The notes: generated by a model not told the origin, from the sequence alone. A DNA stretch of 64,000 bases from an uncultured Chloroflexia bacterium (GCA_963712745.1 CAVQJC010000017.1:32001-96000), one strand, 5' to 3'. Positions 9,372 to 55,041 are shown, numbered from the stretch's first letter. A program made the numbers and translations.

Positions 9372-9463
9372 GGCGTGACCAGAATGGCGAAACTCGGCCG
9401 CGCGCGTGAGTGCCTACGGGGTCCCCGGGCGCCCATGTCAGCGCCCTGTGGGTAGCCCGGGTC
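9372..9463 (+). repeat. cos-like dispersed repeat A, copy 1
   Basis: GACCAGAAT..CGAAACTCGGCCGCGCG..TACGGGGTCCCCGGGCGCCCATGTCAGCGCCCTGTGGGTA; the repeat is seen directly, the cos function is inferred. Confidence 0.85.
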
Positions 9464-10530
9464 CGCCATCCGAGCCATCGGAGCCCGCCGTGTTGCCCCC
9501 GCTGCCGCCCGAGCCGATGACGATGGCGTAGTCGCCGCTGAGAGCGCCGGCCGCGAGCACCTTGCGCGCGTAGCCGCCCCCACCGCCACCACCGGCACAG
9601 GAGGCCTCGTTGGTCCCGGTGTCGTCACCGCCACCCCCACCGCCCCCGCCGCCGACGACCTCCACGACGATGTGGCTGAAGGCGTCATCGGTGGGCTTGG
9701 ACCACGTGTCGTCCGAGGTGTAGACATGGACGACCGGCGGGGTCGGGGTGTCACCGCTCAGCAGGATGCGCTTGCGTGGGACCGAGGTGTCGATGCCCAG
9801 CCACAGCGCCTGCACCACACCTGCGCCATCGACCTCGCAGACGAGCAGGCGGGCGTCGGGGTTCGACGCGATGAGCTCCGCCGCCGGCAGGTACAGCGAG
9901 CCGCCGAGCAGGTCGACCTTGTCACTGAGCCCGTCGTTGCCCGGCACGAGCGTGCCGTCGGGCTCGACCCGCCAGGCCTCGGACATGTCAGCCGCGCCGT
10001 CGTTCACCGAGAGCACGAGCGCGGTCGGCATGTCACCAGCTCCGGGGCTGCCGTCGACCTCCGCGTGGATGGCCGCGCCGTCGACCTGCGTCGCGCCATC
10101 GCGCCCGGTGAAGAGGACGCGCCCCAGCGTGTCCCCGTCCTGCACGGCCGCGTCCGCCGCGCGCAGACGGCTCAGCGTCTCCTGCGGGAAGCCCGCATCG
10201 GCCCGGACCACCTGCTCGACATGGTTGGCGTAGACGACGTCGAATGGGGTCGCCCAGGCGCCGAGCGCGTGCGTGTCAGGGGTGTCCGGCTCGAGGTCGC
10301 CGGCGAGGTCCCGACTGCCGTCGGCGCGCAGGTACTGGCTGTGGTCGTCATCGGCAAGACCGGAGAGGGCACCATGGTCGCTCGAGCCACCAGGTGGGGT
10401 GGCGAAGGCCCCGTCCCCGCGCAGGAACTCGGCGGTGCTGCCCGAGAGCTTCCGCAGCAGGCCGTGCCGGCTGGTGCTGGCATCGAGCTCGGTCGTGTCG
10501 TCGGGTGCCGCCAGGTCGTCGAGCTTGACC
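9438..10530 (-). pseudogene. Phage tail-fibre-like protein fragment, truncated at both ends
   Basis: Open frame with no start codon: KLDDLAAPDD..DHGALSGLADDDHSQYL..VEVVGGGGGGGGG..GGGGGGGYARK; fused into repeat A. Confidence 0.75.
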
Positions 10531-10558
10531 GGATACTCAGGACAGGCCGCTCGTCTGG

Positions 10559-12574
10559 TCAGGCGTTCTTCGTGTTGGTGGACCGCAGGACCGCCACGCC
10601 TTGACGCCCCAAGGGCAGCACACCGACCACCTGCTTGCTGGTAAGAAGATCGACATAGGCCGCCCCTTCGAGGTCCACGGTCACAGCTTCGTCCCCGCAG
10701 TTGACGACGAAGACATACGTCAGGTCATCGCTCTTCCTCTCGAGCAGCTCCACTCCAGGTGGGATGCCCGGAGGCCCGCTGACGCCGGCCTGAGCCAGCG
10801 CCAAACCGAGCACATGCTTCATGGCCAGCCTATCCGGAAGTGTGCCGAGGTACCAGGCGTGCCCTTCGCCCTTGGCGCACCGCGTGACCGCGGGAACGCC
10901 GCCCAGCGGCAAATCCTCGAAACTCGCGACGACCTCAGCGCTGTCGATCTCGATAGCCTCGCGCCAGATGGTCGCGCGATGCCGCGTGCCGTCCGCGAAG
11001 GCGATCCCGACATCGCCGCGCGGAACCGGCCACCACTCCCGCACGGTGATCCCGAGGAGTTCCCGGAGCTGCGTCGGATGGCCGCCGTGGTCCCGCTCGT
11101 AGTTGGGCCGGACGATGCCGCTGAATGGACCGATCACGACGACCCCGCCACGCTCCACGTAATGCGTGAGGTTCAGCACGGACGCATCGCTCAACAGGAA
11201 CAGGTTCGGCACGATTGCGACGCGATAAGAGGACAGATCGTCCTCGGGATGGCGCATGTCGACACCGAGGCTCGCGGACCGAAGCGGGCGGTACATGGCC
11301 AGGGCCAAGTCCCGGAACCGCATCCTGTCGGTGGGATGACCCTCGAACTCCAATGCCCACCAGCTTTCCCAGTCGACCAACAGCGCGACGTCCGCCGGCG
11401 CGCAGCGCGTTCCGGCGACCTCAGCGAGCCCCTCCAGGTCGGTCCCGAGCCGTACCGTGGCCGCCCAGCCCGGGGCCATCTCGCCCCCGGGCGGGAGCAT
11501 GGAGCTGTGGAGCATCTCGGGGCCGCTTCGCGACCCCCGCCACTGGAAGAACATGATGCCGTCGGCACCGGCGCCGACGGCCTGCAGGCTGCGCCGACGT
11601 ACCACGGCCGGGTCCACGGGCGGGTTCAGAGGGCGCCAGTCGACCGCGCTCGGTGCCTGCTCCATGACCAGCCAGGGCCGCCCGCCTCCTAGCGACCGCA
11701 TCAGATCGTAGGTGAAGGCAGTCTCCATGTCCGCATCCGGATCGAGCGGGTCGGGGTAGATGTCGCAGGAGATGGCGTCCTGTGCTCGTGCAAACCGCCA
11801 GTGGTCGAGCCCTGCGTTCGGCCGCATGAAGTTCGTGGTTGTGGGGATCCCTGGCGAGAGTCGGTGGAGGATGTTCCGCTCGCGCTCGAAGCACTCGAGC
11901 AACGCATCGGACGAGAAGCGGCGGTAGTCCAGCTTCAGGGACGGTCGCAAGGGCCCCGGTGCGGCACGCGGCGGCATGACCTCTGCCCACTCGCTGTAGC
12001 GACCACTCCAGACGTCGGTGTTCCAGGCCTCGTTCAATGCCTCGACAGAGCCATAGTTGACCTCCAGCCACGAACGGAAGTGCTCCGCCGAGCGGTCACA
12101 GAAGCACTGTTCGACGTGGTCTCCGTACTCGTTGCCGACGTGCCACATGGCCAGAGCCGGGTGTGAGCCGTAGCGCTCGGCCATGCGAGTGACGAGCTCC
12201 GCTACGGCGGCGGCGAAGTCTGGCGAGCTGGGGCACACATGCTGTCGGCTGCCGATCGACAGTCGCGTCCCGCGCTCGTCGACGGGCAGCGACCCCGGGT
12301 AGCGCAGCGAGAACCAGGGCGGCGGCGTCGCGGTCGCGGTAGCCAGGTCCACCGCGATCTCGCTCGCATGGAGCAGATCGAGCACCCGGTCGAGCCAGCC
12401 GAAGTCCCACGTCTCCGGTTCGGGCTGAAGGCGTGACCAGGCGAATACGCCCACGCTGACCATCGTCACGCTGGCCTCTCGCATCAAGCGAACATCCTCC
12501 AGCCACACGTGCTCGGGCCATTGCTCCGGGTTGTAGTCGCCCCCGTAGAGGATGCCTGGGCGCCGAATGCTCAT
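10559..12574 (-). CDS. Beta-galactosidase, GH42
   Basis: YGGDYNPEQWP, WHVGNEYG (acid/base), WLVMEQ (nucleophile), FFQWR. Confidence 0.95.
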   Translation of the reverse strand: MSIRRPGILYGGDYNPEQWPEHVWLEDVRLMREASVTMVSVGVFAWSRLQPEPETWDFGWLDRVLDLLHASEIAVDLATATATPPPWFSLRYPGSLPVDERGTRLSIGSRQHVCPSSPDFAAAVAELVTRMAERYGSHPALAMWHVGNEYGDHVEQCFCDRSAEHFRSWLEVNYGSVEALNEAWNTDVWSGRYSEWAEVMPPRAAPGPLRPSLKLDYRRFSSDALLECFERERNILHRLSPGIPTTTNFMRPNAGLDHWRFARAQDAISCDIYPDPLDPDADMETAFTYDLMRSLGGGRPWLVMEQAPSAVDWRPLNPPVDPAVVRRRSLQAVGAGADGIMFFQWRGSRSGPEMLHSSMLPPGGEMAPGWAATVRLGTDLEGLAEVAGTRCAPADVALLVDWESWWALEFEGHPTDRMRFRDLALAMYRPLRSASLGVDMRHPEDDLSSYRVAIVPNLFLLSDASVLNLTHYVERGGVVVIGPFSGIVRPNYERDHGGHPTQLRELLGITVREWWPVPRGDVGIAFADGTRHRATIWREAIEIDSAEVVASFEDLPLGGVPAVTRCAKGEGHAWYLGTLPDRLAMKHVLGLALAQAGVSGPPGIPPGVELLERKSDDLTYVFVVNCGDEAVTVDLEGAAYVDLLTSKQVVGVLPLGRQGVAVLRSTNTKNA

Positions 12575-12744
12575 CGGTCACGAACCTTTCGACTTCGCAT
12601 GTTCATAGCCGGAATCTTCCGATATCGTAGCCAAGCTGGGCTCACGGCCTTATGATAGGTTTCCAAGTCCTAACACTAGCGCAAGACATGAGAGCCACGG
12701 CGCCGTCGCCGCCACCGAGCCAGACCGCAGAGCGAGGACATCGT

Positions 12745-14148
12745 ATGGACCAAGGATCCACGCCGCCCAGGACGCACCCGTACATCCCCAATTCTGAACC
12801 TCGGCAGAAGGCCTCCATGCTCGAGGCCGTGAGCGCGAGGTCGGTGGACGAGCTCTACGGGGAGATCCCAGCGCGCTTGCGGCTTGAGCGGCCGCTCGAC
12901 CTGCCAGCTCCATACAGGAGCGAAGCGGAGCTCGTCCGGCACGTGGGCGGACTGATCGACCGGAACCGCTCCACGCGCGAGGCCATCAGCTTCCTTGGCG
13001 CTGGCTGCTATGACCATCACGTGCCTGCGGTATGTGACGAAGTCGCCGGCCGGGCCGAGTTCCTCACGGCCTACGCCGGTGAGCCGTACGAGGACCATGG
13101 CCGTTTCCAGGCGCTGTTCGAGTACGCGTCCATGATGGGCGAGCTGTTGGAGATGGACGTCGTCAACGTGCCTGTATACGACGGCTACCAGGCGGCCGCG
13201 ACCGCGCTGCGCATGGCCGCGCGCGCGACTGGCCGGGACCACCTGGTCATCGCCAGCTCCATCAGTCCCGAGGAGCTCTCGAAGATCAGGGACTATGTTC
13301 GTCCCGACCTCGAGTTGGATGCCCTCGCCGTGGACGGTGCGACCGGCGAGGTGGACATTGCGGCCCTCGAGCGGATCATCAGCGACCGCACCGCGGCCGT
13401 GCTCATCAAACAGCCCTCCTATCTCGGCATCGTGGAGACACGCGGACGGGCGGTCGTGGAGCTCGCTCACGAGCGGGGAGCCATGGTCGTGGCCTCGGTC
13501 GACCCGTCCACACTCGGCGTCCTGGCCACGCCGGCCGCGACCGGTGTCGACATCGCCTGCGGGGACATCCAGCCGCTCGGCATACATCAGCACTTCGGGG
13601 GCGGCCATGCCGGCTTCATCGCCTCGGCGGATGACCCGCACATCGTGGAGCAGTACCCCTCGCGTCTGTTCGGCGTGGCACCGACGTCCGTGGAGGGCGA
13701 ATACGGCTTCGGCGACGTGGCCTACGAGCGCACCTCCTTCGCGGTACGGGAGGAGGGCAACGAGTGGGTCGGCACTGCCGCCGCGCTGTGGGGCATCACC
13801 GCTGGCGTCTATCTGGCGCTCATGGGCCCACAAGGTATGACCGAGCTGGGTGAACGCATGATGGCACGGACCCGCTATGCCATGGAGCGTCTGGCAGAGC
13901 TGCCAGGAGTGTCCGTCCCGTTCGCGGCCAGCCACCACATCAAGGAGTTCGTGGTCGACTTCGAGGGTACTGGTCACACCGTGGCCGACATCAACGCCAG
14001 CCTGCTGCGCCTCGGCATCTTCGGTGGCAGGGATCTGTCGACCGAAGCGGGCCAGTCCGGACAGCGCGCCCTCTACGCCGTGACCGAGATACGCAGCCAG
14101 TCAGACATCGACAGACTCGTCGAAGCCGTCGGGGAGGCCATCCGATGA
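12745..14148 (+). CDS. gcvPA: Glycine dehydrogenase P-protein alpha-subunit homolog (divergent)
   Basis: HPYIPN, FLGAGCYDHHVPAV, EFLTAY, QALFEY, YDG; GAGGA RBS. Confidence 0.9.
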   Translation: MDQGSTPPRTHPYIPNSEPRQKASMLEAVSARSVDELYGEIPARLRLERPLDLPAPYRSEAELVRHVGGLIDRNRSTREAISFLGAGCYDHHVPAVCDEVAGRAEFLTAYAGEPYEDHGRFQALFEYASMMGELLEMDVVNVPVYDGYQAAATALRMAARATGRDHLVIASSISPEELSKIRDYVRPDLELDALAVDGATGEVDIAALERIISDRTAAVLIKQPSYLGIVETRGRAVVELAHERGAMVVASVDPSTLGVLATPAATGVDIACGDIQPLGIHQHFGGGHAGFIASADDPHIVEQYPSRLFGVAPTSVEGEYGFGDVAYERTSFAVREEGNEWVGTAAALWGITAGVYLALMGPQGMTELGERMMARTRYAMERLAELPGVSVPFAASHHIKEFVVDFEGTGHTVADINASLLRLGIFGGRDLSTEAGQSGQRALYAVTEIRSQSDIDRLVEAVGEAIR

Positions 14149-15764
14149 CCACCGGGCAAGCCTCCTCGGCTATCGCCGCCAAGCCCATGCCTCGTCGCTT
14201 CCACCAGGCCAGCTGGGATGAACCCATCATCTTCGAGCTCTCGACGCCCGGTGCGCGTGGCGTCCTCCTACCAGAGTTGGAGGCAGGCATCGTCGAGCGC
14301 GTGGGTGACCCCGCTGCGGCCCTGCCGGCAGGTGTTCGCCGCGAGCGGCCGCCGGCCCTGCCCGAGCTGGCGCAGATCCACGTCGTCCGTCACTACGCGA
14401 GGTTGTCCCAGGAGACACTGGGAGTCGACCTCAACATCGACATCGGACAGGGCACGTGCACGATGAAGTACTCGCCCAAGGTCAACGACCAGCTCGTCCG
14501 GAGCCATCGCATCGCCGACGTGCATCCGCTTCAGGACGAGTCCACCGTGCAAGGGGCCCTAGGGATCATGTGGCACACCGAGCAGTTCCTGCGCGAGATC
14601 TCTGGCATGGACCGGGTCACCCTGCATCCGGGCGCGGGCAGTGCTGCCATCTGGACCAACGTGGCCATGATCCGCGCCTACCACGAGGCTCGCGGGGACG
14701 GGGCTCGCCGGGACGAGATCATCACGACCGCCTTCAGCCACCCCTCCAATGCCGCCTGTGCCAAGACGGCGGGGTACACGGTCATCACGCTCCAGCCGGA
14801 CCCGGTCACCGGGCGACCGACGCTCGAAGCGCTGCAGGCCGCGGTCTCGGAACGGACGGCGGCCTTGCTAATCACCAACCCCGAGGACACAGGCATCTTC
14901 AACCCCGACATCGACCGCTTCGTCGAGGTCGTCCATGCGGCCGGTGGCTTGAGTGCCTACGACCAGGCCAACGCCAATGGCATCCTGGGCATCACGCGTG
15001 CGCGCGATGCGGGCTTCGACCTCTGCCACTTCAACCTGCACAAGACGTTCTCGACGCCGCACGCGTGCGGCGGTCCGGCCGCGGGTGCATGCGGAGTGAC
15101 CATGGAGCTGGCGCCTTTCCTGCCCTCGCCGACCGTGGAGCGCGCGGGCGACCGCTTCTACCTGGATCGAGACCGGCCTCACAGCATCGGCTCCGTCCGT
15201 CCGTGGTACGGGGTCACGCCAAACATCGTGCGTGCCTATGCCTGGATCATGAACCTTGGTGCGGACGGCCTTCGAGAGGTCGCCGAGATCGCAGTCCTCA
15301 ACAACAACTATCTCCTGCAGCGAGTCCTCGCCATCAAGGGCGTCACAGCCCCCTACTCGCAGGGCAAGCGTCGCATCGAGCAGGTCCGCTACAGCTGGCA
15401 GGAGCTCGCCGAGGAGACCGATGTCCATTCGGAGGAGATGGCCGTCCGGATGGCTGACTTCGGCACCCACTACTGGACCAGCCACCACCCCTTCGTGGTG
15501 CCAGAGCCGATGACGCTGGAGCCCACCGAGGCATACTCACGAGCTGATCTCGATGAGTACGCTGCGATGTTGGGCGCCGTCGCGGGGGAGGCATACGAGA
15601 CACCGGAGGTCATCCATTCCGCGCCGCATCGTAGTACCGTCCATCAGGTCGAGCCGAGCTGGTTTGACGACCCTGCGCGATGGGCTGTGACGTGGCGAGC
15701 CTACAAGCGCAAGCACCTGAGAGCGATGCCGGCGCGCGTCGGTGCAGCGGGCCGCGATGGCTGA
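14145..15764 (+). CDS. gcvPB: Glycine dehydrogenase P-protein beta-subunit homolog (divergent), PLP-dependent
   Basis: GTCTMKYSPK, HPSNAA, ITNPEDTG, PLP-lysine motif HFNLHKTFSTPH, EPTE. Confidence 0.9.
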   Translation: MTTGQASSAIAAKPMPRRFHQASWDEPIIFELSTPGARGVLLPELEAGIVERVGDPAAALPAGVRRERPPALPELAQIHVVRHYARLSQETLGVDLNIDIGQGTCTMKYSPKVNDQLVRSHRIADVHPLQDESTVQGALGIMWHTEQFLREISGMDRVTLHPGAGSAAIWTNVAMIRAYHEARGDGARRDEIITTAFSHPSNAACAKTAGYTVITLQPDPVTGRPTLEALQAAVSERTAALLITNPEDTGIFNPDIDRFVEVVHAAGGLSAYDQANANGILGITRARDAGFDLCHFNLHKTFSTPHACGGPAAGACGVTMELAPFLPSPTVERAGDRFYLDRDRPHSIGSVRPWYGVTPNIVRAYAWIMNLGADGLREVAEIAVLNNNYLLQRVLAIKGVTAPYSQGKRRIEQVRYSWQELAEETDVHSEEMAVRMADFGTHYWTSHHPFVVPEPMTLEPTEAYSRADLDEYAAMLGAVAGEAYETPEVIHSAPHRSTVHQVEPSWFDDPARWAVTWRAYKRKHLRAMPARVGAAGRDG

Positions 15765-16920
15765 TGCTGTCGACCCCGCAGCTGAGGCCACGCTTGGGCT
15801 CCTGGTGAACCCCATCGCCGGCATGGGCGGCCGAGTCGGCCTGAAGGGCACTGACGGAGCGGCCGTGCTGGCCCAGGCGCGCGCACTCGGGGCCAAGCCC
15901 CTGGCCGGCGAGCGCGCGAGGTCCGCGCTGCAGGAGTTCTTGCGGACCTGGCCGACACACCGTCCACGGCCGCGCCTGGTCACCGCCGAGGGCCCGATGG
16001 GCCAGGCTGTCGCCGATGCCGCCGGGTTCCCCGCCGAGACCATCGGGGCCGTGACCACACCGACCAGCGCCGATGACACTCGCCGGGCCGCAGCGGCGCT
16101 GCGTGAGGCGGGGGCGGAGTTGCTGCTCTTCGCCGGAGGGGACGGCACGGCTCGCGACGTCAGCAGCGTGATCGACCGTGAGTTGCCGGCCCTCGGCATC
16201 CCGGCCGGCGTCAAGATCCAATCCGCTGCCTTCGCGGCGAGCCCTCGCGCGGGAGGCGCGCTGGCTGCCGCCTTCCTGGCCGGTCGCGAGCGGCAGACCG
16301 AGGACCGGGAGGTCGTCGATCTGGACGAGGCTGCCTACCGCGAGGGCCACATCCGACCGCGACTCCACGGCTACTTGCAGGTGCCTCGGGGACCAGCGGT
16401 CCAGTCGCGCAAGTCGCCGACACCCGCCTCGGAGCGCGAGGCCATGAACGGCATCGCCGGGGCTCTCCTCGAGTCGTACCGTGATGGCCATCGACTCGTC
16501 CTCGGTCCGGGGACCACCACACGCGCGGTGGCTGACCTGCTGGGCCTGCCGAAGACGCTGGTCGGGGTCGACGTGGTCGCTCGGACCGGTGACCGGGGAA
16601 AGCTTCTGGTCGCTGATGCGACCGAGACCGATCTGTTGCGGATCGCCAGGGAGGGGCCGGTCACCATCGTACTCACGCCCATCGGGGGGCAGGGTTTCCT
16701 GCTCGGTCGTGGCAATCAGCAGATCAGCCCTGCGGTCATCCACACCGCAGGCATCGACGCGATCACGATCGTGGCCACGCCCTCCAAGCTGGCCGCCCTA
16801 GCCGGCCGACCGCTTCTCGTCGACACGGGTGACGAGGAGCTTGATGCGCAGCTCAGCGGCCACGCGAGGGTGTTCAGTGGCCGCTACGACCGCGCCATCG
16901 TCGAAGTCGCGGCCGCATGA
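15757..16920 (+). CDS. ATP-NAD kinase/AcoX-like family protein
   Basis: LLVNPIAGMGGRVGLKGTDG, FAGGDGTARD, GIPAGVK, GPGTT, GGQGFLLGRGNQQISP. Confidence 0.9.
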   Translation: MADAVDPAAEATLGLLVNPIAGMGGRVGLKGTDGAAVLAQARALGAKPLAGERARSALQEFLRTWPTHRPRPRLVTAEGPMGQAVADAAGFPAETIGAVTTPTSADDTRRAAAALREAGAELLLFAGGDGTARDVSSVIDRELPALGIPAGVKIQSAAFAASPRAGGALAAAFLAGRERQTEDREVVDLDEAAYREGHIRPRLHGYLQVPRGPAVQSRKSPTPASEREAMNGIAGALLESYRDGHRLVLGPGTTTRAVADLLGLPKTLVGVDVVARTGDRGKLLVADATETDLLRIAREGPVTIVLTPIGGQGFLLGRGNQQISPAVIHTAGIDAITIVATPSKLAALAGRPLLVDTGDEELDAQLSGHARVFSGRYDRAIVEVAAA

Positions 16921-16972
16921 ACCCGCTCGACCACGATCGATCGACGTTGACCCCTACGGACAGGAGGACGAG

Positions 16973-17734
16973 ATGACAGCGATGGCAGGCAAACGAGCAC
17001 TGGTGACCGGAGCCGGCTCGGGCATGGGTCGGGCGACGTCGGAGTTGCTGGCCTCGGAAGGGGCGAGCGTCGTGCTCGCGGACATCGACATCGAGGCTGC
17101 TTCCGAGGTCGCCGATGCCATCGCCGCTGCGGGAGGCCGCGCCGTGGCCGTGGTCTGCGACGTGTCCTCCAGTCCGGAGGTGAGGCAGGCCGTGGAAAAG
17201 GCTGTGCACGAGTTCGGGGGCCTCGATGTCGTGGTCAATTGCGCCGGCATCATCCGTCGCGCCAACGTGGTCGAGACCACCGAGGAGGAGTGGGACCGGG
17301 TGATGGCAGTGAACGTCGGCTCGGTCTTCCTGCTGGGCAAGCACGCAGTCCCGGTGATGGCGGCGGGCGGCGGCGGCTCCATCATCAACATCAGCTCGGG
17401 CTGGGGCCTCAAGGGTGGCCCCGATGCTTCCAGCTACTGTGCGTCCAAGGGAGCGGTCGTCAACCTCACACGTGCCATGGCCATCGACCACGGCCCGCAG
17501 AACATCCGCGTCAACTGCATCTGCCCCGGCGACACCGACACCCCGATGCTGCGATCGGAGGCTCGCCAGCTCGGGCTTGACGAGGAGGCCTTCCTGGAGG
17601 ACTCGGCGGACCGGCCCATCAAGCGGCTGGGCACGGGACTGGATATCGCTCGTGCGGTCCGCTTCTTCGCCTCCGACGAGTCCACCTGGGTGACCGGCTC
17701 GACGCTCGTCGTCGACGGTGGCGGGCTAGCCTAG
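16973..17734 (+). CDS. Short-chain dehydrogenase/reductase (SDR)
   Basis: TGAGSGMG, NCAG, YCASK, PGDTDTPM. Confidence 0.95.
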   Translation: MTAMAGKRALVTGAGSGMGRATSELLASEGASVVLADIDIEAASEVADAIAAAGGRAVAVVCDVSSSPEVRQAVEKAVHEFGGLDVVVNCAGIIRRANVVETTEEEWDRVMAVNVGSVFLLGKHAVPVMAAGGGGSIINISSGWGLKGGPDASSYCASKGAVVNLTRAMAIDHGPQNIRVNCICPGDTDTPMLRSEARQLGLDEEAFLEDSADRPIKRLGTGLDIARAVRFFASDESTWVTGSTLVVDGGGLA

Positions 17735-17738
17735 GGCC

Positions 17739-18551
17739 ATGACCGAACGCAATGGGGACAGCATCGGCGGCGGCCTCTCCACGCGGGCTCGACGTGAGCG
17801 CGTGGCGGAGGCCATCCGGCGTTCCAAGTACACCTCGGTCACCGACCTTGCCGCGGCGTTCGACGTCTCAGAGGTCACCATCCGCAACGACCTCGACCGG
17901 CTCGAGGAGGCCGGCCAGGTGCGCCGAGTGCGCGGCGGAGCCGTCCACCAGGTGGCCGGCACCCTCGAGGTCAGCTTCGAGCAGGACGCCGACACGATGG
18001 CCGGCGAGAAGGCGGCGATCGGCGAGCGAGCCGCCAGCCTGGTCGCCAGCGGGGAGACCGTCATGCTCGACATCGGCTCCACCGTGGCGGCGGTCGCCCG
18101 TGCCATCGCCCGTCGCACCGATCTGGCCGATGTCACGGTCATCACCAACGGCATCCGTGTGGCGCTCGAACTCGAAGCGGCAGAAGGGGGTGTCTCGGTG
18201 CTCGTCACGGGCGGCACCTTGCGAAGCCTGCAGCACTCCCTGGTGAACCCCTTCGGCACGGTCCTGCTCGAACAGTTGCACGCGCACACGGCCATCGTCA
18301 GCTGCAACGGCATCGATGCACGCGCGGGTGTCACCAACACCAACGTCGGCGAGGCCGAGGTGAAACGTCTCATGCTCAAGGCCGGCAGGCAGCGGGTCGT
18401 CGTGGCCGACGGTTCCAAGGTCGGTCAGGTGAGCTTGGTCCACGTCAGCCCGACCGACGACGTCGACATCGTGATCACCGACAGCTCGGCCGACCCCGCG
18501 GCCGTGGCGGCACTGCGTGAGCGCGGAGTCGACGTCCAGATCGTCGAGTGA
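17739..18551 (+). CDS. DeoR/GlpR (AgaR-like) transcriptional regulator
   Basis: FDVSEVTIRNDLDRLE HTH, RVRGGA, LDIGST, ADGSK. Confidence 0.95.
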   Translation: MTERNGDSIGGGLSTRARRERVAEAIRRSKYTSVTDLAAAFDVSEVTIRNDLDRLEEAGQVRRVRGGAVHQVAGTLEVSFEQDADTMAGEKAAIGERAASLVASGETVMLDIGSTVAAVARAIARRTDLADVTVITNGIRVALELEAAEGGVSVLVTGGTLRSLQHSLVNPFGTVLLEQLHAHTAIVSCNGIDARAGVTNTNVGEAEVKRLMLKAGRQRVVVADGSKVGQVSLVHVSPTDDVDIVITDSSADPAAVAALRERGVDVQIVE

Positions 18552-18567
18552 TCCTCCCGGCCTGACG

Positions 18568-29417: not shown

Positions 29418-29546
29418 GGCGTGACCAGAATCGCGAAACTCGGCCGCGCGTGCAGCACGCTACGGGGTCCCCCGGCGCCCATGTCAGCGCCCTGTGGGTA
29501 CCCCTGGGTCAGCGCCCGGGTCGACGCCGGGCTCAGCGCCGCCGCG
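29418..29546 (+). repeat. cos-like repeat A, copy 2
   Basis: Matches copy 1; boxes at 29484, 29509, 29521 and 29533; the last is CTCAGCGCCGCCGC, identical to the HNH gene 3' end. Confidence 0.85.
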
Positions 29547-29594
29547 AGCACGGCTCGGCGGGTGATCGTACGGACAGAGGAGGAGGAGTAGCCG

Positions 29595-30878: not shown

Positions 30879-31350
30879 CGTCGGTCTCCAGGAGCGTGCG
30901 CAACCGCCTGCGTGCCCGCATCAGCGACACCTTCACGGCGGCGCTGGTGCTGCCCATCACGCGTGCGACATCTCGGATGGGCAGGTCGGCGTAGTAGTGA
31001 AGGACGACAGCGGCGCGCTGTCCGTCCGAGAGCCTCGAGAGCGCCTGGCTCAACTCGCTCGGCACATCGGGCAGCCCATACGACTGCTCCGGGTAGATGC
31101 TGCTGACACGGCTCCGTTCCTTGAGGCTGCCGGCCGCGATGCGGTAGGCGGTGTGCCAGATCCATCGCTCGGGGTCACGCAGAGCCGACCCGCGCCGCAA
31201 TGCCTGGGCGAAGGCCTCGGCGATGGCGTCCTCGGTGATGTCGGCGTCGCCGGTGTAGGCCAGCAGGCTCCGCCACAGGCGTTGCCGGTGCGCGCGATAC
31301 ACAGCCTCGATGGCGGTGCTCTCTCTCGGTATCTCGAGTGTCACTTGCAT
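30871..31350 (-). CDS. ECF sigma factor
   Basis: TEDAIAEAFAQAL, WIWHTAYR, LSDGQRAAVVLHYYADL. Confidence 0.9.
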   Translation of the reverse strand: MQVTLEIPRESTAIEAVYRAHRQRLWRSLLAYTGDADITEDAIAEAFAQALRRGSALRDPERWIWHTAYRIAAGSLKERSRVSSIYPEQSYGLPDVPSELSQALSRLSDGQRAAVVLHYYADLPIRDVARVMGSTSAAVKVSLMRARRRLRTLLETDDG

Positions 31351-32788: not shown

Positions 32789-33200
32789 CGAGGGCGGTTT
32801 CGCCGGTCCGAGGGGACATGACGGCCGTGACACCGCTGCCTCTACTGGATCTCCGGGCCGCCGTAGGAAGTGGAAGCTCCCCCCGGGCTTGCAGCAACGT
32901 GGAAGAAGAAGGTCTTCGGCGGAGCGTCCCCCGGGACGACTTGACCCGGGGGACGAGCTACAAGGCTTGACCTTCCCCTGCATCTCGGTGAAGACCTCGT
33001 TCATGCGTGCTTGGCTTCGGCGTCGTGGCGGAGGTGTTCGCCCGCCAGCTGGGCCTCGACCCCGGTCGACGTCGAGCTGGCTTCGGGAGCGGCTGGCTAG
33101 GAGGATGGTGTGAAATAGCCCGTCCACGCGCTTGCGCTACCGGCTGCAAGCGTCGAGTACCCCCGCGCAAGGCCCGTAGCTGCGTGGTCACCCTCGAAGT

Positions 33201-33241
33201 GGTCCGTGGCGCCCATCTCAACGCCCTGTGATGCCCCCGCC
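33201..33241 (+). repeat. cos-like repeat A, degenerate partial copy abutting HNH
   Basis: GGTCCGTGGCGCCCATCTCAACGCCCTGTG versus GGTCCCCGGGCGCCCATGTCAGCGCCCTGTG. Confidence 0.65.
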
Positions 33242-33480
33242 TCAGCGCCGCCGCTGGCTCAACCCCTTGCGCGCGTTGCAGCTCGGGCCGAGCACGCCGG
33301 GCTGGGTGGGCAGCGGCTCACCACCGAGGACGAGCGGCACCGGATGGTCGGCCGCGAGCTCGCCGGGCCGCACCGGATGGGGCGGGTGGTGCCGCCCGGG
33401 GACGTCCAGCCGTGGACCGCGACGTGCGCCTCGACCGTCCGCTTCGCAGGACGTCGCCAGGCGGACGTCCGTCGCACGGC
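33242..33480 (-). pseudogene. HNH endonuclease, copy 1 (frameshifted, 5'-truncated)
   Basis: WRRPAKRTVEAHVAVHGWT / ADHPVPLVLGGE..SCNARKGLSQRRR*. Confidence 0.8.
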
Positions 33481-33780
33481 ACCATCACCGGCTGCACCGT
33501 GGCTGCGCCCGGCACCACCACCCCCTGGGGTGACGGCCAGCAGATCCGCGACCGGGTCGAGGAGTGCACCTTCGTGGAGGGCCCGGAGTCGGGCTGGGCC
33601 TTCGGTGACCCGCGACTCGCGGGGACGAGCACGAACCGCATCGACATCGACATCACCTCCGGTATGGAGGGGATGTTCGATCTGCTCCATGCGCCCTGGG
33701 CCGTGCGCTGGGGGACCATGGAGATCGCAGGGCCGGATGGGGCCTGGGTCGGTCCATGGGTCGCGCCGGTTCTTCCAAGA
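33480..33780 (+). pseudogene. Internal fragment of a DPRLxG-domain secreted protein
   Basis: FGDPRLAGT..WGTMEIAGPDGAWVG. Confidence 0.55.
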
Positions 33781-35408: not shown

Positions 35409-35425
35409 CGGTCCCCCCTGCAGCT

Positions 35426-35580
35426 CGCGTGACCGAGTTTCGCCGATATTGACCAGAATCGGGAATTCTCGGCCGCGTGCGTAACACGCTACGGGGTCCC
35501 CGGGCGCCCACGTCAGCGCCATGTGGGTACCCTGGGTCAGCGCCCATTGCGAAGCCCAGGCCAGCGCCCGCGTCAGCGCC
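35426..35580 (+). repeat. cos-like repeat A, copy 3, with an extra inverted half-site
   Basis: Core at 35450..35545; boxes at 35513, 35537, 35561 and 35573; 35426..35444 is an inverted copy of the GGCGAAACTCGG(C/T)C arm. Confidence 0.85.
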
Positions 35581-35676: not shown

Positions 35677-36237
35677 GTGGACACCGACCTCGTCCGCAGT
35701 GCGATGCGGGGGGACGAGCGGGCCTTCACCGAGATCGTGAACAGCGTGGCCGACCGCTTCCTCGGCGTGGCCCACCGCATCCTGCGGGACGTCGCGCTGG
35801 CCGAAGACGCGGTCCAGCAGACCCTGCTCAGCGCATGGCGAGACCTGCCTGACCTTCGCGATCCGGCGAGCTTCGACGGCTGGGCCTACCGCATCCTGGT
35901 CCACGCCTGCTACATGGAGGCACGCAAGCGCAAGCGCTGGCATCCAGCGACGATCGTCCGGTCGATCGCGGAGCCGGCCGCCCCGGACCTCATCGGCGGC
36001 ATCATCGAACGGGAGCGATTGGAGCGGGCCTTCGAGCGTCTGTCGGTCGATCACCGCGCGGTGCTGGTCCTCACCTACTACCTGGACCTGCCATCCGAGC
36101 AGGTCGCCCAAGCCCTCGACGTCCCGGTCGGGACGGTCCACTCCCGGCTCCACCGAGCCCAGCAGGCGCTCCGTGGTGCCCTCGAGGCGGACGGGCGTGT
36201 GCTACCGGCAACACCCACGACACAGGCGATCGAATGA
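35677..36237 (+). CDS. ECF sigma factor
   Basis: GDERAF, AEDAVQQTL, FDGWAYRI, GTVHSRLHRA. Confidence 0.92.
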   Translation: MDTDLVRSAMRGDERAFTEIVNSVADRFLGVAHRILRDVALAEDAVQQTLLSAWRDLPDLRDPASFDGWAYRILVHACYMEARKRKRWHPATIVRSIAEPAAPDLIGGIIERERLERAFERLSVDHRAVLVLTYYLDLPSEQVAQALDVPVGTVHSRLHRAQQALRGALEADGRVLPATPTTQAIE

Positions 36238-37067
36238 ATGACCAGCACATGACCGACAAGGAGATGGACGCGGTGCTGCGGACGTGGACGCCTGACGCGC
36301 CCACCGGGCATCCCGACCGCAGCCGCGTCGTCGGCAACGTCGTTCGCCAGCTTCACTCGACACGCCGACGCCGACGCCGCTGGTGGCTGACCGTGGCGTT
36401 CCGAGGAATGGCCGGCGCCCCCAAGGACGCCGAGAGGCATCACGACCCAGCCAGTCCCGTCCCGGCCACGGGCGGCCACACCCCCACCGTCATCGGGAGG
36501 ACCCAGTCCATGCTCAGCCCAGTCAAGGCCATCACCGCTGGTGCTCTCGTCTTCGCCATCGGAGGCGTGATGCTCATCGCCCAGCCATTCGACCGACCGT
36601 CGGTCGTCCCCGGCGCTGCTACTGACGACTCGCCCGCCGCTCCGGTGGCCGTGACCGCCACCAGCTACGCGGGGGGCTGCCCGGGCGTCGAGACGACCGA
36701 GACCATCGGCATCATCGAGCGCACCACCGGTGGCTACTGCAACCCCACGTGGGACTGGAGCGATGACCGGCTCGACGGCAAGGTGACCTGGGCGTCGAAC
36801 AGCGACGTCTACACCGACGGAAGCGGCCTGACCATCGAGATGCTCGCCCTGAGCTTCGAGAACGACGAGGGTGCCTGGCGCATGCGCCCGCTGCCATTCC
36901 TCGGGTTTCCGGATGCCCTGGAGACCGGCCCCGACGTCTGGATCCTGGACGGTGAGAGCGCCTACGAGGGGCTCACCGCCGTCCTCGTGGTCGACGGCTA
37001 CACTCCCCACGGCTTCATCATCGACAGCGATCTGCCGCCCGTGCCGGATAACGCCTCTACGAAGTAG
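36234..37067 (+). CDS. Putative anti-sigma factor with an extracellular DPRLxG-type domain
   Basis: Coupled to the sigma gene; TM AITAGALVFAIGGVMLIA; DDRLDG..GAW..SAYEGLTA. Confidence 0.75.
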   Translation: MNDQHMTDKEMDAVLRTWTPDAPTGHPDRSRVVGNVVRQLHSTRRRRRRWWLTVAFRGMAGAPKDAERHHDPASPVPATGGHTPTVIGRTQSMLSPVKAITAGALVFAIGGVMLIAQPFDRPSVVPGAATDDSPAAPVAVTATSYAGGCPGVETTETIGIIERTTGGYCNPTWDWSDDRLDGKVTWASNSDVYTDGSGLTIEMLALSFENDEGAWRMRPLPFLGFPDALETGPDVWILDGESAYEGLTAVLVVDGYTPHGFIIDSDLPPVPDNASTK

Positions 37068-37110: not shown

Positions 37111-37138
37111 GAGGCCCGTCCCGCGAGGGGCGGGCCTC
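37111..37138. terminator. Conserved REP-like hairpin F, copy 1
   Basis: GAGGCCCGTCCC-GCGA-GGGGCGGGCCTC. Confidence 0.7.
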
Positions 37139-37219: not shown

Positions 37220-37510
37220 TCAGCGCCGCCGCTGGCTCAACCCCTTCCGCGCGTTGCAGCTCGAGCAGAGCACGCCCGGCCGAGCCGGCAGCGGCTCGCC
37301 ACCGAGGACGAGCGGCAGCGGATGGTCGGCCGTGGGCTCGCCGGGTCGCACCGGATGGGGCTCCCGATGCCAGCCAGGACAGGTCCAGCCCTCGCGCGCG
37401 ACATGAGCCTCGACCGTCCGCTTCGCCAGACGACGCCAAGCTCTCGTGCGTCGGATCGGATGGTCGGGTGTCCGCCGGAAGCGGTTGGCGAAGCCCGGCA
37501 CCCGGACTCC
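37220..37510 (-). pseudogene. HNH endonuclease, copy 2 (5'-truncated)
   Basis: PGFANRFRRTPDHP..GWTCPGWH..ADHPLPLVLGGE..LCSSCNARKG. Confidence 0.85.
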
Positions 37511-40861: not shown

Positions 40862-41210
40862 TCATCGCCGCGTTTGACTCGGCCCCTTGCGGGCGTTGCA
40901 GCTCGCGCAGGGCACGCCGGGTCTCGCCGACAGCGGCTCGCCACCGAGGGCCAGCGGCACCGGATGGTCGGCGGCCAGCTCGCCCTGTCGCACCGCGTGG
41001 GACTCGCGATGCCAGCCCGGACACGTCCAGCCGTGGACTGCGACATGCGCTTCGACCGTCCGCCTCGCCAGCCGGCGCCAGACGCTGGTGCGTCGCACCG
41101 GATGGTCGGGCGTCCGCCGGAAGCGGTTGGCCAAGCCGGGTCGACCGCAGCGCCGTGGCCCCACAGGCTCGGCGTTGACCTGGCCCGGCCGCAGGTCCAA
41201 CATGGCCCGA
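40862..41210 (-). pseudogene. HNH endonuclease, copy 3 (near complete; N-terminal PCWTCGR out of frame)
   Basis: RCGRPGLANRF..ADHPVPLALGGE..CASCNARKG. Confidence 0.85.
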
Positions 41211-41934: not shown

Positions 41935-41975
41935 CGACGCCCGATCCGCTCGCCGTCATTGCGTTCGCCTTCGCC

Positions 41976-42175
41976 TCACCGTCGCCGCTGACTCAGGCCC
42001 TTGCGCGTGTTGCAGCTCGGGCAGAGCACTCCGGGCCGTGCGGACAACGGCTCACCACCGAGGACGAGCGGCACCGGATGGTCGGGCATGCACCGGAAGC
42101 GGTTGGCGAAGCCGGGTCGACCGCAGCGGTCGCAGCGACGCTCGTTCGTCGTGGGCCAGCCGCACGTGCATCGTC
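41976..42175 (-). pseudogene. HNH endonuclease, copy 4 (internal deletion)
   Basis: CTCGWPTTNERRCDRCGRPGFANRFRCMPDHP|VPLVLGGE..CPSCNTRKG. Confidence 0.85.
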
Positions 42176-47026: not shown

Positions 47027-47278
47027 ATGATGGAAGTCACCGCACGGCTCAGCTCCAAAGGCCAGGTCACGGTCCCCCGCGCGGTCCGCGACGCGCTCTC
47101 CCTGGAGGAAGGGGACCGCCTCGTGTTCCGGGTGGAAGGCGACCATGCCGTCCTGGCCCGGACGCCGGACCTCTTGGCGCTCGCAGGATCGGTGAGCGTG
47201 CCGGCCGCGAAGCGGGGCACGCCCTGGGATGAGGTGCTGCGGCAGACGCGCCGAGCTCGCGCAGCCGGGCGACGGTGA
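47027..47278 (+). CDS. AbrB/MazE/SpoVT antitoxin
   Basis: LSSKGQVTVPRAVRDALSLEEGD. Confidence 0.92.
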   Translation: MMEVTARLSSKGQVTVPRAVRDALSLEEGDRLVFRVEGDHAVLARTPDLLALAGSVSVPAAKRGTPWDEVLRQTRRARAAGRR

Positions 47279-47670
47279 CCGCCTTCGTCGATGCCAACAT
47301 CCTCATCCGCCACCTGACCGGGGACCCACCCGAGCAGGCTGCGCGCGCGACGCGCTACCTGCGTGCCGCCGACGAGCTGCTGCTGCCCGATCTCATCCTC
47401 GCCGAGGTCGCCTACGTCCTGGAGTCGTTCTACGAGACGCCGCGGGCGCAGGTGGCAGCCACGCTCCGAGCGGTGCTGGCGTTCCCGGCCATCCGGGTCA
47501 TCGATCGGGATCTCCTGCAGCGTGCCATCGAGGTCTATGACCTCCTCCGACTCGACTTCGCGGATGCCTATCTCGTCGCGAGCGCCGAACGGACGGGGAT
47601 CGGAGTCGTCGCCTCGTTCGATCGTGGCATCGATCGCGCCGTCACCGTCCGCCGCGAGGAGCCCGGCTGA
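47275..47670 (+). CDS. vapC: PIN domain toxin
   Basis: FVDANIL, LAEV, DFADAY, SFD. Confidence 0.92.
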   Translation: MTAFVDANILIRHLTGDPPEQAARATRYLRAADELLLPDLILAEVAYVLESFYETPRAQVAATLRAVLAFPAIRVIDRDLLQRAIEVYDLLRLDFADAYLVASAERTGIGVVASFDRGIDRAVTVRREEPG

Positions 47671-47740: not shown

Positions 47741-47779
47741 CTTCGACTCGACGGCACCGCCGACGACCGGCACTTGGCC

Positions 47780-49104: not shown

Positions 49105-49386
49105 CTACACAACCGGCAGGACCGTCGAGCATGGCGGGCCCCGACCCACGCGCCCGAGCCGCTCTTCGTCCTCGGAGAGGTCGACGTACAGGACGGGGAC
49201 CAATGGTTCGCCGCGGCTGATCGCGAGGGCCACCCTGAGGTGGCCGTCGACGACGTGCCCGGTGCGCTGGTTGACGAGCACGTTCTGGACCCAGCCGACC
49301 TGGTCAAGGACCCCGGCCAGTGCCTCCTGCTGGGCCTTCGGATGGACGCGGCAGTTGGCCGGGCTGGCGAGCAGCCGGTCGGGCAA
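49105..49386 (-). pseudogene. ParB/Srx-like N-terminal domain of a phage ParB-methylase, fragment
   Basis: PANCRVHPKAQ..VGWVQNVLVNQRTGHVVDGHLRV..VDLSEDEE. Confidence 0.8.
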
Positions 49387-52901: not shown

Positions 52902-52929
52902 CGAGAGCCGGGATCGCTCCCGGCTCTCG
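52902..52929. terminator. Hairpin downstream of the SIMPL gene
   Basis: Perfect 12-bp stem CGAGAGCCGGGA/TCCCGGCTCTCG. Confidence 0.65.
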
Positions 52930-52980
52930 ACTTCTCTGCCCATTCTTGGCGTGCCGAGGGCAGCCGGGTGACGGCGGTGG

Positions 52981-53745: not shown

Positions 53746-53966
53746 GGGTGATCGTTCCTCCGATGGTGATGGGTCACTGGACGGGACCGAGCGGCGGTGC
53801 TCGTCGTCGGCCCGCAGTAGCTAGACGTCAGGCTGACCAGTGTGGTTCCGGGTCGGTCGATGGACGCCTCGCCCGAGCAGCGGATGTCGCCGGAGGCAGC
53901 CGCCCGCCGGGGATGTAGCATCGACGCCCAGAGGCGGGCCGCTCGCTGCCCAGGCGAGCTCGTCGG

Positions 53967-54510
53967 ATGACAGGGGGAGTGTCTTCGATGACTCGACATC
54001 GGGTGGGTGCTCCGTCGAAGCACCATGCTGGCCGCCTGGCCACCGTCATGGTCTTCGTGGCCGCGATCGTGGCGAGCCCTGGAGCGCTGGCTCAGTCACC
54101 CTCGCCATCCCTCGCGCCTGCGGCGAGCGCCTCCCCGGCCACGACATTCGACGTCTTCGCCGGCAGCCCCACCACGACCGTCTCGCTCGGGCTCTACTCC
54201 GGCTTGCCCGACCCGTCCTGGGAGCTGTCCGACGAGGAAGCGTCGGCCCTCACCGCGCTCCTCGAGTCGCTGCCCCGCGTGGACGGCCCAGCGCCATCGG
54301 GTGGTCTCGGCTATCACGGCTTCACGATCGAGCGGCTGACGCCCGAGGGCATGCCGCGCCTGCTGCTGGCGTTCGAGGGTACGGTCTCCGACCCGCTCTC
54401 GAGCCATCTCTCCTACCTCGATGATCCCGGACGGTCGGTCGAGCGTTTCCTCCTCGACAGCGGGCGCGACTGGCTGTCGGCCGTCGAGATCGATGGCGCC
54501 CGGACTCGAT
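53967..54510 (+). pseudogene. Secreted hypothetical protein, 3' end lost at the Zn-finger relic
   Basis: Signal peptide; YSGLPDPSWEL..GLGYHGF..VERFLLDSG, then non-coding-like read-through. Confidence 0.55.
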
Positions 54511-54889
54511 CCCGGGCCGACGTCGTCTGCGGGTTCGTAGCCGGCGGCGAGGCAGCGCTGACTCGCTGGGTCGCCCGGAACCGCGGGAGACCTGGGCCGG
54601 ACCGCGCCCGCCAGCGTCTCGTCCGCGAGCGGCAGCGCTCGCCGCACACGATGGCCTGCCGACGCCGGCCGTCGAGCGGGACGCCGCAGCCCGGGCAGAC
54701 GCGTCCGGCGGGCCGGCGGCCGATGGCGCTGCGGTGGGCCTCGCACCAGACCCGGGGGCGGCCACGGCCGGGTCGGGCCTCGAGCTCGGCACCGCACGCG
54801 CGGCAACGGCGCCGTGGCGTGACCAGTGCCCGCAGCTGCGCCGTGCCCATCCGGGCCAGGGCCTCGAGCTCATCCATCACGATCATCAT
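54413..54889 (-). CDS. Phage-type double Zn-finger protein immediately downstream of the cos-like site
   Basis: CRACG..GRPRVWCEAH and CPGCG..AIVCGERC. Confidence 0.7.
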   Translation of the reverse strand: MMIVMDELEALARMGTAQLRALVTPRRRCRACGAELEARPGRGRPRVWCEAHRSAIGRRPAGRVCPGCGVPLDGRRRQAIVCGERCRSRTRRWRARSGPGLPRFRATQRVSAASPPATNPQTTSARDRVRAPSISTADSQSRPLSRRKRSTDRPGSSR

Positions 54890-54931
54890 CCCATCGGGCG
54901 ACCGGGTGTCCGCATCAATACGGCGTAATCA

Positions 54932-55041
54932 GGCGAAACTCGGCCGCGCGTGCACCACGCTCCGGGGTCCCCCGGGCGCCCACGTCAGCGCCATGTGGGT
55001 ACCGGTGGTCCACCGCCCGGCCCAACGCCACGCCCAACGCC
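54932..55041 (+). repeat. cos-like repeat A, copy 4
   Basis: Core at 54932..55003; boxes at 54985, 55010, 55022 and 55034. Confidence 0.85.

Follow-up and report, generated by a model that had tools for sequence, protein, structure and literature searches.

Why does one short repeat recur four times, up to 20 kb apart, among the broken phage genes of an uncultured Chloroflexia bacterium? We addressed this question in a 64,000-nt stretch of its DNA (the window), where the preliminary description had recognised a cos-like site and proposed that its copies are retained packaging signals, allowing a helper phage to mobilise the cargo between them like a natural cosmid. Since the hairpin-to-arm layout of this element (repeat A) is shared with near-intact prophages and viral contigs, it is very probably, judging from sequence, the DNA-packaging (cos) region of a temperate Chloroflexota phage. 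Its copies were most likely left beside captured accessory genes by repeated phage integration and decay. The features concerned are the following.

4341-4535, minus strand: LuxR-like HTH gene, within a prophage end (4341..4655)
4640-4655, no strand: tRNA-Pro(CGG) 3'-end att scar, marking a prophage end
5395..6155, plus strand: second remnant of the small-gene block (third remnant at 8374-8521)
9376..9498, minus strand: repeat A copy 1; candidate cosN 10-mer at 9411-9420 (putative position); no outer boxes
9438-10211, minus strand: Gly-rich ORF, whose stop codon is the anchor box of copy 1
26656..27325, plus strand: small phage genes and upstream non-coding region, located between A and the ParB/methylase gene in intact relatives
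29422..29550, minus strand: repeat A copy 2; candidate cosN 29457-29466; terminates in a short copy of the HNH 3' end
33195..33262, minus strand: partial repeat A, upstream half alone, broken at the candidate cosN; right after an HNH stop, cargo slot empty
33241..33486, minus strand: HNH endonuclease remnant, 3' part, frameshifted
35425..35579, minus strand: repeat A copy 3; candidate cosN 35486-35495; second, inverted arm
35677..37067, plus strand: ECF sigma factor (Pfam) and downstream ORF, a probable anti-sigma factor by position; cargo in the HNH-to-A slot
37220..37498, minus strand: HNH remnant, C-terminal 92 aa to its stop; third of three stacked HNH ends
40862..41152, minus strand: HNH remnant, 5'-truncated, stacked
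41975..42167, minus strand: HNH remnant with internal deletion, stacked
49155..49383, minus strand: N-terminal remnant of a phage ParB/DNA-methyltransferase gene (PHROG 498)
54689..54889, minus strand: small phage ORF, Cys-rich and Zn-finger-like, coming after many of the A copies; unmatched in Pfam and PHROG
54893..55051, minus strand: repeat A copy 4; candidate cosN 54957-54966; second, inverted arm
55187..55837, plus strand: cargo ORF upstream of copy 4; no Pfam match; same slot allele in genomes G022 and G053
56775..56975, minus strand: broken remnants of a methylase C-terminus and a TerS N-terminus

Repeat A in the window and in the genome

Repeat-family search and alignment confirmed four direct, non-tandem copies, anchored at 9438, 29484, 35513 and 54985, with start-to-start distances of 20046, 6029 and 19472 bp and a 70-nt core that is 77-90% identical between pairs. 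A profile derived from them retrieved four more copies in the genome (E 1.5e-25 to 6e-10, far beyond chance). The genome (G000) thus holds eight clear copies and one weak partial copy, distributed as eight on contig C17, spanning 85 kb, and one on C20. The preliminary description had overlooked a partial copy at ~33195-33262, the fifth of the window, which is weak (E 0.022 genome-wide) and directly abuts an HNH end. Since the four copies belong to this larger set, the distance of 45.5 kb from first to last is true of the window copies but depends on the window edges. Copy 4 and its cargo form a 908-bp block that is 98% identical to C17:1699-2594. Among 49 genomes of the genus, 21 gave a match to repeat A; outside the genus, an order-wide search (286 genomes, two candidates scored per genome) yielded three weak hits and nothing better than E 4.8e-6. 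Rfam returned no match for A, its sole match in the window being a c-di-GMP-II riboswitch at 6849-6951.

The offsets initially reported for the YCAGCGCC boxes hold, but several boxes are imperfect. Copy 3 displays four exact boxes at 0/24/48/60, the +37 box of copy 2 is found only with two mismatches, each of the three outer boxes of copy 4 carries one mismatch, and copy 1 is reduced to its anchor box. These 12-bp units look like degenerate reiterations of the last four HNH codons. Nor is the element strictly non-coding as had been assumed, since the final box doubles as the stop codon of HNH and the anchor box of copy 1 as that of an ORF; in viral contig L175, the HNH reading frame even continues through it. 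As for the surrounding genes, the phage remnants are broken as described, but most adjoining cargo ORFs are open and match Pfam families.

Position and layout of the candidate cos region

Good support for a cos-like site 3' of an HNH gene comes from the position of A and from a layout shared by near-intact prophages and viral contigs that bear TerS, TerL, portal and capsid genes. On the minus strand, A has the HNH endonuclease gene on one side and the ParB/methylase-TerS-TerL head operon on the other. The order HNH-cargo-A-small genes-ParB/methyltransferase-TerS-TerL is seen in G056 (contig C5) and in the near-intact prophages of G007 (C37 and C9), while the A-type layout lies immediately 3' of HNH in viral contigs L174 and L175 and ahead of ParB/methyltransferase-TerS in L173. 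The hairpin centre is 54-56 nt from the arm in all nine sequences lined up, including two near-intact prophages and three viral contigs, and 33 nt from a conserved GAC in 29 of 45 scorable copies (32-35 nt in all 45). The arm itself is nearly invariant between prophages and viral contigs.

The protein families are those of cos phages by homology: the TerL of a G007 prophage and that of viral contig L058 fall into PHROG 9 (cos-packaging class), the G007 TerS into PF05119/PHROG 83, and HNH into PHROG 144 in seven of seven aligned members. The isolated-phage TerL proteins closest to that of the G007 prophage are of the phiC31/phiBT1 types (~32%), and phiC31 has cohesive ends. The exact A pattern is absent from IMG/VR, so an intact phage with an identical sequence has not been seen, and none of the IMG/VR contigs examined terminates at the motif. 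Comparison of A with 50,697 phage records by blastn gave chance hits only (E of at least 0.4), and a PDB search with the HNH alignment reached E 0.053 at best. Common or fixed ends at A were absent from the assembled contigs of four sequencing runs. A metagenome scan recovered 10 short contigs with a match, uninformative on termini, and read-depth peaks at HNH and A merely mirror repeats in the community.

In the live phage, TerS and TerL together with the HNH cofactor would cut inside A, our best guess being the variable 10-mer that follows the conserved GAC; by analogy with HK97, the conserved arm adjoining it on the downstream side would be the binding site of TerS. For HK97, TerS binding 15-29 nt downstream of the cut and stimulation of cleavage by gp74 are reported (PMC11331095); with the 10-mer as cosN, the arm of A would occupy about +12 to +28. 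A cosN at the HNH 3' end, with the boxes as filled-in overhangs, was rejected: the duplicates are non-identical and variable in length, and boxes are absent from G007 and from viral contigs that possess hairpin and arm.

Prophage decay and island build-up

The whole locus is probably explained as cos relics of a temperate siphophage family that integrated in tandem at tRNA-Pro(CGG) and decayed, the copies of A persisting as passengers of the cargo. On the minus strand, a complete prophage would comprise, in this order, att, the LuxR-like gene, cargo, lysis genes, HNH, the cargo slot, A and the small genes, continuing with ParB/methylase, TerS, TerL, portal, head, tail and replication genes and a serine recombinase up to tRNA-Pro. 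Such phages would insert repeatedly, head to tail, at the tRNA gene, and deletions would strip head, tail, replication and integrase genes and join neighbouring prophages. Accessory genes would survive with a few hundred flanking bases per side, assuming selection on the cargo. Since the main cargo slot separates the HNH stop from A, both slot flanks would accumulate as co-oriented repeats, A being carried along rather than maintained as a signal. Loss of core genes and retention of morons are described for domestication in general (PMC13626063).

Scars of the tRNA-Pro(CGG) 3' end found inside islands indicate tandem integration. Among the 49 genomes, the small gene is present in 26, HNH and A in 21 each, TerS in 13, TerL in seven and an SPP1-type portal in two; G000 (84.6% complete) contains eight HNH copies and no TerL, portal, capsid or tail gene. 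The structural genes of these prophages are largely lost. The slot is hypervariable, with 32 of 39 HNH-to-A pairs filled by sequences of 23 clusters. Against repeated integration counts the excess of A copies over att scars on C17 (eight versus two). A Pfam scan of the 93 window ORFs found neither replicon nor integrase between A copies, and the four tyrosine-recombinase hits in G000 all lie outside the island.

Conservation and spacing of the copies

Alternatively, the sites could still be in use: a helper terminase would cut a chromosomal copy, package leftwards through the island, pass over sites until the head has almost filled, and cut a later copy. The 40-50 kb of cargo transduced in this way would recombine into the tRNA-Pro island of the recipient, as in the natural cosmid originally envisaged. 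Cloned cos sites are reported to permit transfer and terminases to skip cos sites (PMC6092414). In line with continued use, all 14 islands mapped have their A and HNH ends in one orientation, although tandem integration alone explains this; hairpin and arm are both kept in 57 of 92 profile hits, and a related viral contig measures 41.7 kb. As for a helper terminase, TerL occurs in seven genomes of the genus and contigs of related viruses exist; none was found in G000 itself, at 84.6% completeness.

Conservation speaks against this alternative, with the very outcome that the preliminary description had named as a refutation of its proposal. Compared with the flanking pseudogenes, A is no better kept (79% versus 82-84% in neighbouring phage remnants), with an identity of 0.79 for its core, 0.83-0.84 for HNH, 0.82 for the small gene and 0.78 for another non-coding remnant. 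The core identity exceeds that of HNH third codon positions (0.71-0.73), which indicates that A was under constraint, perhaps during phage life only, perhaps for longer. The core is broken in 19-23 of 84 copies (about a quarter), and the breakpoint hazard in its first 35 nt (0.007-0.009 per nt) is not below that of the flanks. The 35 nt after GGCGCC contain the breaks of about 20 copies, but the search itself pushes breaks into this interval; truncation by in-situ terminase cuts was rejected, the hazard being not above that of the downstream flank.

Lambda-size spacing (38-52 kb) is at most faintly apparent: from one copy to the next the median distance is 10.9 kb, and three of 39 such distances fall in this range. 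Considering all pairs, 23 of 122 do so, a marginal excess over a uniform null (14.6, P 0.015) or a gap permutation (18.2, P 0.059), which is lost among full-length copies (11 pairs versus 9.8 expected, P 0.29). Moreover, packaged ends would fail to anneal because the candidate cosN varies between copies, copies 1 and 4 differing at four of 10 positions. With no extra conservation, broken cores, no replicon or integrase between copies and a marginal spacing excess, the natural-cosmid proposal is unsupported, and we judge continued use unlikely. Host retention of A for gene movement is possible but not supported. We are equally doubtful that the islands act as cargo libraries with co-oriented relic cos sites, from which segments of 40-50 kb are packaged in situ, from one relic to a later one, by a superinfecting member of this phage family. 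If true, cos-type lateral transduction would shuffle accessory genes among hosts and return new cargo to the HNH-cos slot.

Other readings of the repeat and its junctions

A could be another cis element, such as a late promoter/operator or the place where the small Cys-rich protein binds, the real cos being elsewhere between HNH and TerS. A second, inverted arm located 19-27 nt downstream in 30 of 55 copies resembles an operator-like dyad, A stands 1.5-4 kb from TerS, and L058, with an HNH 62% identical and a head operon, has no A arm. Likeness to known cos junctions is also weak: among eight alignments, six are non-significant and the best two are equalled by 15 and 17 of 300 shuffles. In favour of a cos, a GGGG..CCCC-type hairpin, read by eye, precedes the record end by ~35 nt in five of eight end-junctions of isolated phages; with the 10-mer as cosN, hairpin and cut would be 43 nt apart in A, beyond the 34-37 nt of these phages. 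However, a hairpin, a fixed spacing and a variable 10-mer in conserved flanks right after HNH correspond to the cut position in the compared isolated HNH/cos phages, which makes another cis element improbable.

Equally little credit goes to the idea that the 3' end of HNH, together with its reiterated 12-bp units, is a recombination landing pad, where cargo is stacked like cassettes by a site-specific or HNH-nick-primed process and the array grows without whole-prophage integration. Junctions are concentrated at the HNH stop, 62 of 82 HNH pieces terminating within -7..+13 nt of it, but selection for an intact HNH in the live phage would give the same result. Neighbours are stacked 0.15-5 kb apart (nine HNH-HNH and 11 A-A pairs), three HNH ends stand in series in the window, and empty-slot joins occur in contigs of other samples. 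The last 16 nt of HNH recur on the far side of eight of 32 filled slots, compared with one of 421 control windows. Nevertheless, these eight repeats differ from their own HNH end by 1-3 substitutions, none being identical, and extend over ~7 to ~70 nt, as deletions between tandem prophages predict; A-side breakpoints are spread, and the island is devoid of a tyrosine recombinase. Likewise, we found neither a tyrosine recombinase beside the array nor one fixed crossover with conserved att sites, as would be typical of an integron-like cassette array. Finally, neither an origin nor a site-specific recombination site, both mentioned in the preliminary description, found support, and the former was rejected as the family carries its replication genes at other places (G008:C3 222-226 kb, L173 1.2-2.8 kb).

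Comparison with known systems

The decayed cos region proposed here resembles the HK97/phiC31 type (3'-overhang, gp74-type HNH cofactor, P27-family TerS), in which HNH lies directly upstream and a PHROG 9 TerL and PF05119 TerS downstream, and in which a hairpin, a short variable stretch and a conserved arm follow one another as in A. Unlike in that type, small genes and ParB/methylase (1.5-4 kb) come between A and TerS, HNH and A are set apart by a hypervariable cargo slot, and the HNH end is reiterated zero to four times in 12-bp units; the host is a Chloroflexota and the cos is predicted from sequence. The closest isolated HNH proteins are those of Gordonia phages Dogfish, Ewald and Nyceirae (Nyceiraevirus; 46-47% over 57 aa, E 1e-3 to 6e-3), where HNH is annotated across the cohesive genome end and the junction contains a GGTACC hairpin and a GGGCGCTGA box. 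The alignment of this junction to A is borderline (15-17 of 300 shuffles as good), and the cargo slot is absent.

Domesticated (cryptic) prophages are reported to lose integration and packaging genes and to keep morons (PMC13626063), and the repeated tRNA 3' scars seen here are a likeness to tandem tRNA-anchored islands. What differs is that a single genome holds as many as 8-11 cos-region relics from one phage family, with only ~100-400 bp apiece around different cargo; we found no description of such multiplicity in the literature searched. Cos-type PICIs (EcCICFT073, SaPIbov5) and cosmids are alike in being helper-packageable with one or two cos and no head genes (PMC6092414). PICIs, however, excise, replicate and encode an integrase, regulators and a primase, none of which was found around A copies; the window contains no att-flanked cos unit with such genes, only remnants of a few hundred bases.

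Our results provide a candidate packaging site, a gene order, an integration site and a hypervariable slot for temperate phages of an uncultured Chloroflexota genus, and account for the construction of its 50-130 kb accessory islands by mechanisms that are useful but ordinary. A last likeness is to lateral transduction, in which chromosomal DNA is packaged in situ from an integrated packaging site. It is described for pac phages, and cos phages are said in the same accounts not to perform it because a second cos is required (PMC8575938, PMC12829572). A multi-cos island would provide such second cut sites, and the islands of this genus offer a natural setting for testing whether chromosomal DNA can be transduced by cos phages once a relic cos gives the second cut.

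Repeat A in the window and across the genus

The four copies of repeat A, the candidate cos region, with anchors at 9438, 29484, 35513 and 54985 on the (-) strand and spacings of 20,046, 6,029 and 19,472 bp, were borne out, and their 70-nt cores share 77–90% pairwise identity. The box offsets of the preliminary description also match in value, although four exact boxes are found in copy 3 only and copy 1 has a single box. At copy 1, a Gly-rich ORF (PF21722; window 9438-10211, (-) strand) enters repeat A with its C-terminus and stops inside the anchor box. A profile search of the source genome (4.2 Mb, 20 contigs, 84.6% complete, 5% contaminated) revealed seven clear copies and one weak partial copy on the window's contig (C17), all on the same strand, and one further copy on contig C20. 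The window itself spans positions 32,001-96,000 of C17. Since the C17 copies run from 1.7 to 87 kb, the previously highlighted 45.5-kb first-to-last span is a product of the window edges. Variation in G/C-run length among copies may reflect sequencing errors.

Repeat A was matched in 21 of 49 genus genomes, and its copies and the HNH gene ends are co-oriented in all 14 mapped islands. A 26-base pattern returned 15 matches in 185,579 species genomes, each under a Chloroflexota/Chloroflexia title, as well as 10 matches in metagenomes and none in IMG/VR; a shallow search of 286 order genomes gave no strong match beyond the genus.

In phage orientation, the element runs from the HNH stop through zero to four 12-bp units, a GGTACC hairpin and GGCGCC-G4-AC to a variable 10-mer and an arm. 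The units end in GGCGCTGA and, judged by their sequence, resemble degenerate repeats of the final four codons of HNH. The arm is near-invariant (CGCGGCCGAGTTT), with a second, inverted one in 30/55 copies; the 10-mer, parsed in 49/55 copies, has 23 variants, the commonest in 17. Hairpin centre and GAC lie 33 nt apart in 29 of the 45 scorable copies. Hairpin and arm are also found 54-56 nt apart in two near-intact prophages of the relative G007 and in IMG/VR contigs L173-L175, where unrelated sequence fills the interval and the 12-bp boxes are absent; in L174 and L175 this layout is directly 3' of HNH. Viral contig L176 starts too late to be scored, and L058 has no arm despite a close HNH and head operon.

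A probable decayed prophage family in a tRNA-Pro island

The second window repeat family (D1) corresponds to the 3' portion of a (-)-strand HNH endonuclease gene. All 7/7 aligned members were assigned to PHROG 144, with a best E of 1.3e-6, although P0001 by itself matches weakly. In relatives, the gene order is att, LuxR-like gene, lysis genes, HNH, cargo, repeat A, small genes, ParB/methylase, TerS, TerL, portal, capsid, tail, replication and serine recombinase. Remnants in the source genome comprise 8 pre-holin, 8 HNH, 10 LuxR-like and 4 small Cys-rich genes, plus one ParB/methylase start and one TerS start from the head operon side; TerL, portal, capsid and tail all gave zero hits in this 84.6% complete genome. 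Among the 49 genomes, HNH and repeat A are each present in 21, the small gene in 26, TerS in 13, TerL in 7 and an SPP1-type portal in 2; those counts that come from family searches take in unrelated phages too. Fourteen island loci, including L005:837-1214 on C20, hold stop-free full-length or near full-length HNH frames, mostly in genomes without detected TerL. A second conserved non-coding relic (window 25040-25103 and 26656-26730) lies between the small genes and ParB/methylase, and is also present in L058.

Scars of the tRNA-Pro(CGG) 3' end are repeated within islands, two of them on C17. A serine-recombinase ORF adjoins a scar in the relative G008 and the tRNA itself on contig C5 of the source genome, and C17 probably joins C5 at tRNA-Pro(CGG).

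Attachment scar and other elements in the window
4640-4655: tRNA-Pro(CGG) 3'-end scar, adjoining a LuxR-like gene
6849-6951, (-) strand: c-di-GMP-II-GAG riboswitch (Rfam RF03169), upstream of a SRPBCC/polyketide-cyclase-family gene (6394-6837)
37111-37138, 58019-58046, 61066-61093: family D17, a 28-nt GC hairpin present three times and resembling a terminator or REP element

A stretch of ~80-100 nt similar to the riboswitch, at 43.7 kb on C20, matches many loci of the genome. Other accretion islands occur on C5 (296-377 kb), C20 (652-660 kb), C11 and C15; tRNA-Thr(CGT) has 11 3'-end scars on C5 and tRNA-Gly(TCC) several, and the non-Pro islands have their own repeated intergenic elements. Contigs C1 and C2 share a similar tRNA gene run (Ala, Ile, Ser, Ser, Arg, Ser, Ser), which suggests that the bin mixes two strains or contains a duplication.

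The cargo slot between HNH and repeat A

HNH pieces end within -7 to +13 nt of the stop in 62 of 82 cases; these 62 have a median length of 196 nt and include 20 full-length ones. A good motif match marks 48 HNH ends. For 39 of them a copy of repeat A follows downstream within 10 kb, the other nine being excluded for lack of a paired copy or for an intervening HNH. These slots are filled in 32/39 cases, by 0.6-8.9 kb belonging to 23 sequence clusters, and empty in seven. The slot is also filled in near-intact prophages and hence belongs to the live phage.

Cargo and toxin-antitoxin features of the window
4753-5249: type II toxin-antitoxin pair YefM/YoeB
10559-24755: metabolic block with GH42 beta-galactosidase, glycine-cleavage P-like pair, NAD kinase, SDR, DeoR regulator, GH63-like hydrolase, sulfatase fragment and sugar ABC transporter
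47027-47670: type II toxin-antitoxin pair AbrB/PIN
56007-56755: type II toxin-antitoxin pair Phd/PIN

An ECF sigma factor with a downstream partner ORF is a recurrent cargo (window 1401-3670, 29595-31428 and 35677-37067), seen in several slots of relatives as well. A YefM/YoeB-like pair also lies 3' of a broken TerL in the relatives G056 and G001.

The last 16 nt of HNH are repeated ahead of repeat A in 8/32 slots versus 1/421 in the control, and are identical to the upstream HNH in none of the eight. Stacked neighbours 0.15-5 kb apart comprise 28 HNH end-repeat A, 9 HNH-HNH and 11 repeat A-repeat A pairs. Deletion between tandem prophages would account for both the repeated ends and the stacking.

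Retained signal or relic

The preliminary description proposed that the copies may be retained packaging signals, and overstated this retention. The core of repeat A (54 copies) has a mean pairwise identity of 0.79 versus 0.83-0.84 for HNH (third positions, 0.71-0.73) and 0.82 for the small genes; other non-coding relics reach 0.72 and 0.78, and within the source genome the values are 0.82 for repeat A versus 0.90 for HNH. Hairpin and arm are both kept in 57/92 profile hits, and homology is lost within 35 nt past GGCGCC in 19-23 of 84 anchored copies. The break hazard per nt is 0.007-0.009 in those 35 nt; it is 0.002-0.006 for most bins on the HNH side and 0.004-0.012 on the downstream side.

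Consecutive spacings in eight islands have a median of 10.9 kb (38-52 kb in 3/39). Among all pairs, 23 of 122 fall at 38-52 kb versus 14.6 expected under uniformity (P 0.015) or 18.2 under gap permutation (P 0.059), full-length copies give 11 pairs versus 9.8 expected (P 0.29), and six other spacing windows gave no excess. The signal is a hint at most; the related genomes counted are also not independent.

Repeat A as a probable cos region, and known systems

The cos-like identity proposed from the sequence was named correctly, considering the HNH adjacency and the layout in prophages and viral contigs. The G007 TerL is closest to phiC31/phiBT1 types, and the HNH to that of Gordonia phages, where the gene is annotated as spanning the cohesive end. 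In 7/8 phage end-junctions compared, the last kilobase has an HNH, either annotated or matched, and a G/C hairpin was seen by eye ~35 nt ahead of the end in 5/8; direct alignment of repeat A to the eight was borderline for two and not significant for six. Assembled contigs showed no fixed termini. Repeat A is very probably a cos region. The 10-mer is a candidate cut site (cosN), a position held with much lower confidence; copies 1 and 4 differ at 4/10 of its positions.

We consider it likely that repeat A is a relic, spread through the genus, of the cos region of a so far undescribed family of temperate phages, multiplied because the flanking cargo slot outlasts prophage decay in the tRNA-Pro island. 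Cos-to-cos transduction of the cargo, in the manner of a natural cosmid, seems improbable. PICIs, elements that also replicate, can have functional cos sites in the chromosome (PMC6092414), and passages of PMC8575938 and PMC12829572 state that lateral transduction is not performed by cos phages. Searches of open-access literature on Limnocylindria prophages, cryptic-prophage cos retention, Chloroflexi tandem accretion and HNH-cos moron hotspots turned up no account of these arrays. Loss of packaging genes with retention of morons is described for prophage domestication in a section of PMC13626063. In HK97, according to an excerpt of PMC11331095, gp74 stimulates cleavage giving a 10-nt 3' overhang and TerS binds 15-29 nt past the cut, a distance that would agree with the arm of repeat A if the 10-mer is cosN.
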